Below are positions 42,690-44,031 of a stretch of DNA of 60,707 nucleotides, in pieces. Position 1 is the first letter of the stretch. Each line of letters begins with the position of its first letter. The notes beneath the pieces are model-generated. The model had not been told where the DNA came from. It worked only from the letters and a program-made list of their open reading frames with translations, and ran no database searches. The position numbers and the translations under genes were made by a program. This stretch comes from Burkholderiales bacterium. Its GTDB lineage: Bacteria; Pseudomonadota; Gammaproteobacteria; Burkholderiales; SG8-39. The stretch is from positions 1 through 60,707 of the forward strand of contig JAYRND010000065.1 in NCBI GenBank assembly GCA_041904885.1, written 5' to 3'.

Positions 42690-42702
42690 CAACCTATTGA
42701 TT
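42690..42702 (-). promoter_or_regulatory. IHF-consensus-like site upstream of the pilA-1 sigma54 promoter
   Basis: The reverse strand reads AATCAATAGGTTG, matching WATCAANNNNTTR. It lies in an AT-rich patch about 55 nt upstream of the -24 element. Confidence 0.35.
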
Positions 42703-42753
42703 AATAGAATTTTTATTCTACAAGGGACCACTGCGCGCCGCGTCCGCCAAGGG

Positions 42754-42769
42754 TGGCACGATCATTGCG
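42754..42769 (+). promoter_or_regulatory. sigma54 (RpoN) -24/-12 promoter of pilin gene 1
   Basis: TGGCACgatcaTTGCg fits TGGCAC-N5-TTGCW with correct GG/GC spacing, about 60 nt upstream of ATG 42828. Confidence 0.65.
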
Positions 42770-42827
42770 TTTTGCGTAGCCGATGGCTTCTGGGCCTGTC
42801 GCCCGGACCTAGCGGAGGCGCAAGCGA

Positions 42828-43271
42828 ATGAAGAGACTGCAGAAGGGCTTTACCCTGATCGAACTGATGATCGTCGTCGCGATCATCGGCATTCTCGCGG
42901 CTGTTGCGATCCCCGCGTACCAGGACTACATCGCGCGTGCCCAGGTATCCGAGGCAATCAGCCTGCTGAGCTCTGGCAAGGCGGCCATGGCCGAGCACTT
43001 CACGGACCACGGCTATTGGCCGCCGGATACGGCTACGGTCATGGGAAGTACGGCCGGCAAATACACTGCGTCTGTAACCATTACCGGCAGTCCCACTACT
43101 TTTGGCACGCTGACCTTGACCGCCACGATGCAATCTTCGGGAGTCAACGTGGCGATTACCAGCGGCACGGTGTCGTTGTGGACTTCCGACGGCGGCAAGA
43201 TCTGGACCTGCACGCAGGGCCTGAGCGGCACGGCGATGGCGACCAAATACCTTCCCAGCGCCTGCCGTTAG
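42828..43271 (+). CDS. pilA: type IVa major pilin (PilA family), copy 1
   Basis: 147 aa, [42 protein letters not shown]. This has a short leader ending in G, with F at +1 and E at +5. The C-terminal Cys pair (WTC...PSAC) gives the disulfide loop. Confidence 0.95.
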
Positions 43272-43354
43272 CCAGGATTTACCTGACCATTTCGGGCGCC
43301 ACCTGACGGATTTGGGTCGTCCGCGAGGCTCAGGGGCGGCAAATTGTCGGTCTA

Positions 43355-43370
43355 GAGGAAATATTTCCTC
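43355..43370. repeat. perfect 16-bp palindrome GAGGAAATATTTCCTC between the two pilin genes
   Basis: Read directly from the sequence. No T-tract follows it. It lies about 70 nt upstream of the second sigma54 promoter. Confidence 0.4.
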
Positions 43371-43442
43371 CTTTCGAGCGTACAAGTAATTGAATTAATG
43401 AAATTTTTATCTGTAAAATTGCGACAAGTAGTGGCAGTGGCA

Positions 43443-43458
43443 TGGCATGATGATTGCG
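43443..43458 (+). promoter_or_regulatory. sigma54 (RpoN) -24/-12 promoter of pilin gene 2
   Basis: TGGCATgatgaTTGCg has the same spacing as the first promoter. It is preceded by an AT-rich patch containing a one-mismatch IHF-like site (43383..43395, reverse strand). Confidence 0.65.
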
Positions 43459-43533
43459 TATCTCCGGTTAGCGGTCGAATCTGCCCGCGTGGCTACCAAC
43501 GCAACTTTTTTTAACTTGAATAGGGAGTTTTGA

Positions 43534-43977
43534 ATGAAGACCCTCCAGAAAGGCTTTACGTTGATCGAACTGATGATCGTGGTCGCGATCATCGGTATTC
43601 TCGCTGCCGTCGCGATTCCTGCGTACCAGGACTACATCGCGCGCGCGCAGGTGTCCGAGGCGGTGAACCTGCTTGCTTCGGGCAAGACCGGGATGGCGGA
43701 GTACTTTGCCGACAAGGCGCAGTGGCCTTCCGCCGCGTCCGAGGTGATGGGCAGCACGGCCGGCAAGTACACCGGCGCAATCGCTATCACTGGCTCGCCG
43801 ACAACCTTGGGCACACTGACCCTGACCGCGACGATGCTGGCCAGCGGGATCAACACGGCCATCACGAGCGGCACGGTGTCGCTGTGGACCTCCGACGGCG
43901 GCAAGATCTGGACCTGCACGCAGGGTCTGAGCGGTACCGCACTCGCCACGAAGTACCTGCCGAGCGCCTGCCGCTAA
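43534..43977 (+). CDS. pilA: type IVa major pilin (PilA family), copy 2
   Basis: 147 aa, [42 protein letters not shown].... It is colinear with copy 1 with no gaps and ends in the same ...[23 protein letters not shown]. Confidence 0.95.
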
Positions 43978-44000
43978 GCTGTTCCGCACCAGCTTTACCC

Positions 44001-44031
44001 AAAAGGCCGTCGCGATTTGCGACGGCCTTTT
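44001..44031 (+). terminator. rho-independent terminator after pilin gene 2
   Basis: AAAAGGCCGTCGC-gattt-GCGACGGCCTTTT: a perfect GC-rich stem, 5-nt loop and T-run, 24 nt after the stop. The A-tract on the 5-prime side makes it potentially bidirectional. Confidence 0.8.

Follow-up and report, generated by a model that had tools for sequence, protein, structure and literature searches.

Tandem PilA-type pilin genes with separate putative sigma-54 promoters and segmental gene conversion in a Burkholderiales bacterium

A 60,707-nucleotide stretch of DNA from a Burkholderiales bacterium (contig JAYRND010000065.1 of assembly GCA_041904885.1; the whole stretch is hereafter referred to as the window) carries two adjacent genes for type IVa pilins, copy 1 at positions 42828-43271 and copy 2 at positions 43534-43977, both on the forward strand. 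The explanation that we favour, with a probability of about 0.7, is that both genes encode functional paralogous major pilins of the PilA type, that each has its own RpoN-type promoter, and that the 3' halves of the two genes have been homogenised by gene conversion. What was observed directly, and is documented below, is the gene family, the conserved regulatory motifs, the orthology of either copy across genomes and the signal of conversion. Major pilins encoded in tandem, and pilin genes controlled by sigma-54 and PilR, are known already; the new detail is that the back halves of the genes were repeatedly copied between the paralogs and part of the front stays distinct.

As the initial annotation had stated, both genes encode prepilins of 147 amino acids that align colinearly without gaps. 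The proteins are 82% identical and differ at 26 residues (about 27 had been counted), located at residues 3, 44-70, 81-84, 92, 102-108 and 137. The nucleotide identity is 76.6%, and the many synonymous differences reported before were recovered as 52 codons with synonymous-only changes. The previously noticed block of 35 nucleotides that is identical in the two genes is real (gene nucleotides 358-392), and the identity over gene nucleotides 331-390 is 95%. A constraint acting on this block at the nucleotide level was considered and rejected: its length exceeds expectation by a narrow margin (permutation p 0.03-0.05), and its codons are preferred ones that are largely conserved in all relatives.

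Both proteins match the Pilin family PF00114 over residues 36-147 (72 bits for copy 1 and 68 bits for copy 2, cut-off 22) and the N_methyl family PF07963 (40.6 and 38.9 bits, cut-off 21.2). Each starts with a class III signal peptide, in which a basic leader of seven residues ending in Gly is followed by the cleavage context G|FTLIELM, giving a mature protein with N-terminal Phe and Glu at position +5. Cys128 and Cys146 are present in both and invariant among 115 homologues, in which the motifs DGGK.W.C and KYLPSACR are nearly invariant as well. By sequence, the nearest solved structures are PilE pilins of Neisseria (E 1e-29), and the AlphaFold2 model (predicted local distance difference test score 86) agrees with gonococcal pilin 2hi2 at a template modelling score of 0.76. 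In this model the N-terminal helix covers residues 10-61 and the alpha-beta loop residues 62-79, followed by a four-stranded antiparallel sheet (strands 80-87, 95-101, 113-119 and 127-130) with the disulfide-bonded D-region at the C terminus. All the sequence and fold features of a type IVa major pilin that were tested are present at this locus, and a Shine-Dalgarno ribosome-binding site precedes each of them. Exact-sequence look-ups of the two pilins returned no identical protein on record; homologues of both are abundant, and several of them occur pairwise on single metagenome contigs.

The amino acid differences had been assigned before to the alpha-beta loop and the early sheet, a placement that needed correction when they were mapped on the model. 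Differences at 44-63 fall in the C-terminal half of the N-terminal helix (alpha1-C), those at 66-70 in the alpha-beta loop, and those at 81-84 in strand 1. The alignment columns that separate the two copies in every genome are 3, 45, 48, 52, 53, 57, 59, 61 and 62; the copy-distinguishing residues are concentrated in alpha1-C, not in the alpha-beta loop, and the patch at 66-70 simply varies.

Relatives of the pair were gathered by homology, by contig look-ups, by a scan of species-representative genomes and by a DNA pattern scan of metagenomes (6 loci). The same pair arrangement was found in loci L001, L003/L004, L084, L087, L088, L090 and L092, and in two pairs for which DNA was not at hand; gene order, spacing of the start codons (705-720 bp) and synteny are repeated in L001, L003, L084, L087, L088, L090, c6Ji and m2107. 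The conserved order of the locus is a divergent TPR-GT41 glycosyltransferase gene, an open reading frame of about 98 codons, the two pilin genes and, usually, a gene for a membrane protein of about 1200 amino acids with PAP2 and spermidine-synthase-like domains. Copy 1 of L001 is 95% identical to copy 1 of the window, and the best species-representative genomes, again of uncultured Burkholderiales, reach at most 67% identity. Where DNA was available and a copy-1-type gene is retained, the upstream gene is marked by the signature SLLS[SA]GKAAMAEH[FY].DHGYWP (window, L001, L003, L084, L086, L087 and L088), and the signature of the downstream gene ends with [FY].DKA.WP (the same loci, but L085 replacing L086). 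In at least eight genomes, the position within the pair identifies the copy-1-type and the copy-2-type genes as orthologues, and in a neighbour-joining tree of residues 44-84 copy 1 stands apart from copy 2 with 98% bootstrap support.

At least eight contigs of related uncultured Burkholderiales have the two genes in the same order, with corresponding promoters and terminator, and the duplication is therefore old. The synonymous divergence (dS) between the two genes of the window is about 1.1 and the non-synonymous divergence (dN) 0.124, giving a dN/dS of 0.11; between the window and L001, the orthologues show dN/dS of 0.04-0.08. These values show purifying selection on both copies, as had been proposed at the outset together with an old origin, and the estimate of dN/dS and the gene-conversion test on orthologous pairs, both recommended then, have now been carried out, the latter with a positive outcome described below.

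The constraint is unequal between the two copies. After division of the protein into segment N (residues 1-43), segment A (44-84) and segment B (85-147) and comparison across 6-8 genomes, the proportion of non-synonymous differences (pN) between genome groups was 0.003 in segment N and 0.088 in segment A for copy 2, and 0.034 and 0.172 for copy 1. Silent divergence between the window and L001 differs about twofold (dS 0.90 for copy 1 and 0.39 for copy 2), and within the window the G+C content at third codon positions is 0.86 for copy 2 versus 0.78 for copy 1, which fits a weaker codon selection, and hence a lower expression, of copy 1. Copy 2 is the more constrained copy and probably the principal subunit.

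It is possible, although on balance unlikely, that only one of the two, presumably copy 2, is a true filament subunit, the other being a non-assembled or modulatory pilin-like protein that tunes assembly, competence or the PilS-PilR feedback. Kingella PilA2 and Pseudomonas stutzeri PilAII are reportedly proteins of this kind. The stronger constraint and the higher third-position G+C of copy 2 agree with such a division, as do its resemblance to outgroup pilins in alpha1-C and the recent conversion in L090 (see below), which replaced copy 1 by copy-2 sequence. Among characterised pairs, PilA1 of Legionella was not detected on the cell surface (PMC13170364), and deletions of pilA1 and pilA2 in Xylella lead to opposite phenotypes (PMC9956873). 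Copy 1, however, keeps the leader, Glu+5, both cysteines, the Shine-Dalgarno sequence, a conserved sigma-54 promoter and the better of the two enhancer dyads; its sequence suggests no defect in processing, and its dN/dS against L001 is the lowest of the range given above (0.04).

Each of the two genes is preceded by an element of sigma-54 type. Promoter 1 carries the -24/-12 element TGGCACGATCATTGC at 42754-42768 and promoter 2 the element TGGCATGATGATTGC at 43443-43457, both on the forward strand and located 74 nucleotides (gene 1) and 91 nucleotides (gene 2) before the start codons. A search of the 60.7-kb window for TGGCAYN5TTGC, on either strand, gives these two sites and no other, where 0.24 would be expected by chance, and both stand where the initial annotation had put them. 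When seven upstream regions were aligned for each pilin gene, the element TGGCAY..T..TTGC turned out to be invariant in 14 of 14 promoters. Transcription from promoter 1 is predicted to start near 42780, leaving a 5' untranslated region of about 48 nucleotides, and that from promoter 2 near 43469, with a 5' untranslated region of about 65 nucleotides that holds a conserved block, CAGCGGTCGA, specific to promoter 2. In a survey of 26 tandem pilin pairs from diverse proteobacterial genomes, strong sigma-54 matches were found before both genes in 9 pairs, mostly with gaps of at least 160 nucleotides between the genes, and before the first gene only in another 9, against a background rate of 2.4%; separate sigma-54 promoters for tandem pilins are therefore a recurrent arrangement, not a unique one.

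Upstream of each -24 element lies a putative enhancer (upstream activating sequence). That of promoter 1 occupies 42590-42624 on the forward strand, about 160 bp upstream of the -24 element, and is kept in 7 of 7 copy-1 upstream regions; it consists of a perfect dyad, TGACGCGTTTTGTCA, at 42590-42604 and, about 20 bp downstream of it, a second and weaker site at 42610-42624 that ends with TGTCA. The enhancer of promoter 2, at 43284-43319 on the same strand, starts 13 nucleotides after the stop codon of copy 1 and lies about 155 bp upstream of the -24 element. Its first site, TGACCATTTCGGGCG, is a degenerate dyad with 2 mismatches (TGAC-N7-GTC in relatives), and its second site, TGACGGATTTGGGTC, is located 20 bp downstream of the first; the position and the TGAC...GTC pattern are kept in 7 of 7 intergenic regions, with a strict dyad in L085. 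A search of 652 kb for the strict dyad TGAC-N7-GTCA gave 69 occurrences in total, and 54 of 105 pilin genes in the fetched loci carry it within 300 nucleotides upstream. The distance to the pilin gene is 140-275 nucleotides, the inner part is often AAWTTT (loci L006-L080), and the genes concerned belong to Beta- and Gammaproteobacteria and Magnetococcales. Because of this frequency, TGAC-N7-GTCA looks like a general enhancer of pilin genes. Inside the window a loose form of the enhancer pattern is not enriched (8 found versus 6.3 expected); the enhancers are supported by their conservation and by the frequency of the dyad before pilin genes.

The protein bound at the dyad would be PilR. Since neither rpoN nor pilR nor pilS was found in the window, the identity of the activator is an assignment by analogy. 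For Pseudomonas aeruginosa a PilR consensus TGT-N11-ACA has been described (PMC8035640), and the pilA upstream region of P. paraeruginosa (L081) contains TGTCAAAAAATGTCACA, which fits this consensus.

Between enhancer and -24 element, both promoters carry a site that resembles the binding sequence of integration host factor (IHF). The site of promoter 1, CAACCTATTGATT, lies at 42690-42718 on the reverse strand and shows an exact WATCAANNNNTTR match followed by an A/T-rich tract; that of promoter 2, CAAGTAATTGAAT, lies at 43383-43410 on the reverse strand, belongs to repeat family D4, and has one mismatch to the IHF consensus before its A/T-rich tract. The cores are located at 42690-42702, about 60 bp upstream of -24, and at 43383-43395, about 55 bp upstream of -24, and the core is retained in 7 of 7 orthologous upstream regions before both genes. 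The two AT-rich patches pointed out in the initial annotation are present as quoted, each overlapping a core of the pattern YAANNNNTTGAWW, which has 3 matches in the window versus 0.37 expected. A WATCAANNNNTTR core with an A/T tract in this position has the layout of an IHF-assisted sigma-54 promoter, with putative binding of IHF. The proposal that a whole regulatory cassette was duplicated is borne out by the -24/-12 elements, the IHF-like cores and the upstream dyads standing at matching distances before the two genes, and RpoN, PilR and IHF dependence is accordingly predicted by motif content for both promoters. Promoter 2 alone has, between its enhancer and its IHF-like site, the palindrome GGAAATATTTCC at 43357-43368, conserved as GGAAWTATTYCC in 6 of 7 intergenic regions. 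A role of GGAAATATTTCC as terminator or attenuator was rejected, with a fold of just -12.4 kcal/mol and no conserved U-tract; the palindrome may be a site for an extra regulator that sets gene 2 apart, or a weak hairpin.

Transcription of the pair is probably closed by an intrinsic terminator after copy 2, at 44000-44036 on the forward strand (CAAAAGGCCGTCGC-GATTT-GCGACGGCCTTTTG followed by ATT). Its hairpin (44000-44032) has a stem of 14 bp with 100% complementarity, and the segment folds at -33.1 kcal/mol (z -6.5); in 6 of 6 orthologous loci the stem is invariant and the loop variable. A consensus terminator scan reported no terminator, and this hairpin emerged as inverted repeat I6 and was confirmed by folding. 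The 262-nucleotide spacer after gene 1 holds no comparable structure (folding z -0.56), in agreement with the previous claim that only the second gene has a strong terminator. With no terminator behind gene 1, transcripts that start at promoter 1 probably extend into gene 2 as well. The lack of a terminator would also suit a single operon driven by promoter 1, in which the second -24/-12 element and its upstream motifs are non-functional relics of the duplication; so would the degenerate dyad of promoter 2 in the window and the 9 of 26 tandem pairs, with short gaps of 70-110 nucleotides, that have a sigma-54 match before the first gene only. We regard this arrangement as improbable, since a relic should have decayed at a dS over 1, but 7 of 7 intergenic regions keep the -24/-12 element and the IHF-like core, along with the place of the enhancer and the block in the 5' untranslated region, and the 9 pairs with strong matches before both genes come from several lineages.

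The coding sequences tell two different histories in their front and back parts. For residues 44-84, the identity between the paralogs of one genome is 0.59, and that between genomes for the same copy is 0.77 (copy 1) and 0.87 (copy 2); for residues 85-147 the order is reversed, with 0.84 between paralogs within a genome versus 0.63 (copy 1) and 0.68 (copy 2) between genomes for the same copy. The pooled proportion of synonymous differences (pS) between paralogs is 0.61 for residues 1-43, 0.57 for residues 44-84 and 0.35 for residues 85-147. In contrast to the clean separation of copies in the tree of residues 44-84, the neighbour-joining tree of residues 85-147 mixes the copies, which cluster by genome with 64-99% bootstrap support, forming the groups {window, L001}, {L003, L088} (81%), {L087, c6Ji, m2107} (77%) and {L084_1, L084_2} (99%), the last with a common insertion of five amino acids. 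MaxChi-type breakpoint tests on nucleotide triplets were significant in 11 of 11 cases (p<=0.005), and the breakpoints lie mostly at codons 67-70 or 86-116; four relatives have them at 67-70, whereas those of the window genes are spread over 68-116. The latest conversion tract of the window pair covers codons ~113-147 (43164-43268 in copy 1 and 43870-43974 in copy 2, forward strand) and includes the 35-nucleotide block; to the right of codon ~113-116, 23 of 28 and 26 of 30 informative sites are paralog-like (MaxChi-type p about 0.002), and the last ~32 codons are 82-87% paralog-like.

Locus L090 shows a whole-gene conversion directly, in a relative and not in the window. On this contig of 607 kb the two pilin genes (4297-4737 and 5001-5441) have coding sequences that are almost identical from start to stop, with sharp boundaries and diverged flanks: the aligned units are 91% identical overall, and the identity falls upstream of the start codon and after the stop codon. 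Both genes are of copy-2 type, the upstream gene having lost the copy-1 signature, and codons 102-106 still differ. Taken together, the disagreement of the segment trees, the common insertion, the lower silent divergence, the breakpoints and the L090 case show that the C-terminal identity within a genome is a product of segmental gene conversion.

The initial annotation had read this identity as the opposite of the pattern usual for pilins, in which the C-terminal loop varies most. The comparison between genome groups reverses that view: pN for residues 85-147 is 0.28 for copy 1 and 0.23 for copy 2, against 0.17 and 0.09 for residues 44-84, with pS for residues 85-147 at 0.40-0.53, and residues 85-147 are thus the most variable segment at non-synonymous sites. 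This also makes it highly improbable that, as the annotation implied, an unusually strong purifying selection on the D-region has kept the C-terminal parts alike without recombination. The dN/dS of 0.03 (pS 0.46) for codons 112-147 of the window pair and the near-invariance of DGGK.W.C and KYLPSACR are what such selection would leave, but the segment that it should have frozen varies strongly between groups, each genome's own variant, the insertion included, is common to both of its paralogs, and the breakpoints are significant, the L090 tract being bounded by start and stop codons. Scarcely credible, finally, is an antigenic variation of the Neisseria style with one copy as silent donor cassette, which the evident conversion between the copies and a similar speculation on pilA1/pilA2 by the authors of a Stenotrophomonas phage study (PMC7504290) might suggest, but which is at odds with the presence of two copies only, both full-length with leader, promoter and ribosome-binding site, unlike the promoterless, 5'-truncated silent cassettes of the pilE/pilS type, and with conversions that are rare on an evolutionary scale (pS 0.23-0.54 in the converted segment) and not frequent somatic events.

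The reading of two functional pilins with separate promoters and converted 3' halves can be stated as the following course of events. An ancestral unit of about 700 bp, comprising enhancer, IHF site, sigma-54 promoter, 5' untranslated region and coding sequence, was duplicated. Most likely, both genes are transcribed separately, from RpoN-dependent promoters activated by an enhancer-binding protein of the PilR type bound about 155-165 bp upstream, with IHF bending the intervening DNA. Repeated conversion has since homogenised the 3' part from codon ~68-85 to the stop codon, which encodes the beta-sheet and the disulfide-bonded D-region, and both paralogs thereby carry one genome-specific variable C-terminal surface. 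Residues 45-62 have remained copy-specific across genomes, presumably because conversions that erase them are selected against. Both proteins would be made and polymerised by one machinery, as mixed or as alternative filaments.

Several points weigh against this course of events. The bacterium has not been cultured, and no other record contains either of the two proteins in identical form; the genes for the presumed regulators are missing from the window, as described above; and the two mismatches in the promoter-2 dyad could make promoter 2 weaker in the window than in relatives. On the side of conversion, near-saturated silent sites and a strong codon bias allow only a rough timing, the silent-site signal is weakest in the window pair itself (pS 0.54 in segment B), and the segment trees rest on 41-69 columns, with some groupings at 64-81% bootstrap. 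In characterised systems with adjacent pilA pairs, one copy is often not detectably assembled, as for Legionella PilA1 (PMC13170364).

Tandem PilA-type genes have been described as pilA1/pilA2 in Stenotrophomonas maltophilia and in Xanthomonas (PMC7504290) and as pilA1/pilA2/pilA3 in Xylella fastidiosa (PMC9956873), and control of the major pilin by RpoN and PilR was shown in Xanthomonas oryzae (PMC7170775). The window pair resembles the Xanthomonadaceae pairs in having PilA-type genes side by side, but the Xanthomonadaceae paralogs are far more diverged (51% identity in S. maltophilia versus 82% here) and adjoin pilB, pilC, pilD, pilR and pilS, whereas the window pair sits among glycosyltransferase genes; the clear split into a copy-specific and a converted segment also sets it apart from them. 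PilA1 and PilA2 of Legionella pneumophila are adjacent predicted major pilins with 72% identity that occur genus-wide (PMC13170364). Their differences run along the whole protein, only PilA2 is found in pili, and no segmental concerted evolution is reported there. PilE1 and PilE2 of Streptococcus sanguinis are highly similar major pilins that co-assemble stochastically in one filament (10.1101/2023.06.15.545089). By analogy, this heteropolymer is a plausible functional model for the window pair, although S. sanguinis is a monoderm system in which PilE1 and PilE2 differ in an 8-residue loop and the C-terminal tail, not in alpha1-C and the alpha-beta loop as here.

With pilA of P. aeruginosa under PilS-PilR and RpoN, the window pair has in common a -24/-12 promoter and an upstream enhancer for an activator of the NtrC family, here a predicted one. 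The right half-site of TGAC-N7-GTCA is common to the Pseudomonas site and the left half differs; the window pair also has a conserved IHF-like site, and IHF is not known to act at the pilA promoter of P. aeruginosa. A parallel from another filament family, the flagellins, is flaA/flaB of Campylobacter, a tandem pair in which each gene has its own promoter and gene conversion has made part of the sequences alike, the rest staying distinct. Our literature search on concerted evolution of duplicated type IV pilins gave nothing on point, and no report in the literature searched describes pilin paralogs with alpha1-C specific to each copy and the C-terminal half converted.

The pair is flanked by three large proteins with TPR and GT41 (O-GlcNAc-transferase-like) domains, encoded on the reverse strand at 37453-40512, 40382-42229 and 47832-50861. 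One of them is fused to a GT4 domain, and all related loci have a GT41 gene in divergent orientation to the pilin genes. These neighbours suggest a possible glycosylation of the pilins; in Neisseria PilE, the region aligned with the variable patch at residues 66-70 bears the Ser63 glycan. The short gene between the GT41 gene and copy 1 (42265-42561, forward strand; 98 amino acids) has no match in Pfam or NCBIfam, and versions of 97-100 amino acids occupy the same place in all related loci examined. Directly downstream of the pilins, at 44118-47816 on the forward strand, a membrane protein of 1232 amino acids is encoded with PAP2_3, MFS-like and spermidine-synthase-like domains (NF037959, 'fused MFS/spermidine synthase'); it is kept at the same position in L001, c6Ji and L090, is absent in L084, and stands where pilin accessory or modification genes sit in Pseudomonas.

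When the surroundings of the pair were searched for pilR, pilS and further pilus genes, the one find was a PilB-like assembly ATPase 7.6 kb downstream (51603-53975, reverse strand), a protein of 790 amino acids with N-terminal GAF and MshEN domains that matches TIGR02538 with E 9e-145, below the equivalog cut-off. Near it lies a gene for a protein with GAF and HD-GYP-like domains, followed by genes for an FHA-domain protein and a PP2C phosphatase (entries 49907-51583 and 54923-56614, both on the reverse strand), and L084 keeps the ATPase and the GAF-HD gene syntenic with its pilin pair. The GAF/HD-GYP, FHA and PP2C neighbours hint that the pilus may be controlled by a second messenger or by phosphorylation. 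Positions 1-37000 form a region for polysaccharide and glycan synthesis, with an RmlD-type reductase, two WavE-like proteins, a GT2 glycosyltransferase, an FkbM methyltransferase, an amine oxidase and an ABC transporter; its G+C content is about 0.69, versus 0.59-0.61 over the pilin genes.

The present analysis does not overturn the current understanding of type IV pili, and adds a multi-genome example of neighbouring genes for major pilins, found in Burkholderiales of an uncultured group. It also carries a warning that pilin variability may seem to follow the inverse pattern when only the paralogs of a single genome are compared, and the TGAC-N7-GTCA dyad could aid the annotation of pilin regulons in metagenome-assembled genomes. 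The combination of a distinct alpha1-C with a converted sheet and D-region provides a concrete hypothesis for the persistence of duplicated pilins. In a further-reaching reading, which we consider doubtful at present, a two-subunit system is maintained with alpha1-C in two forms, and conversion spreads new variants of the C-terminal surface to both subunits. If this reading is true, the two forms of alpha1-C (residues 45-62) would yield either filaments that differ in their mechanics or partners or one heteropolymer of mixed composition, and the exposed, fast-evolving C-terminal surface might serve phages as a receptor or be glycosylated by the GT41 enzymes encoded nearby.

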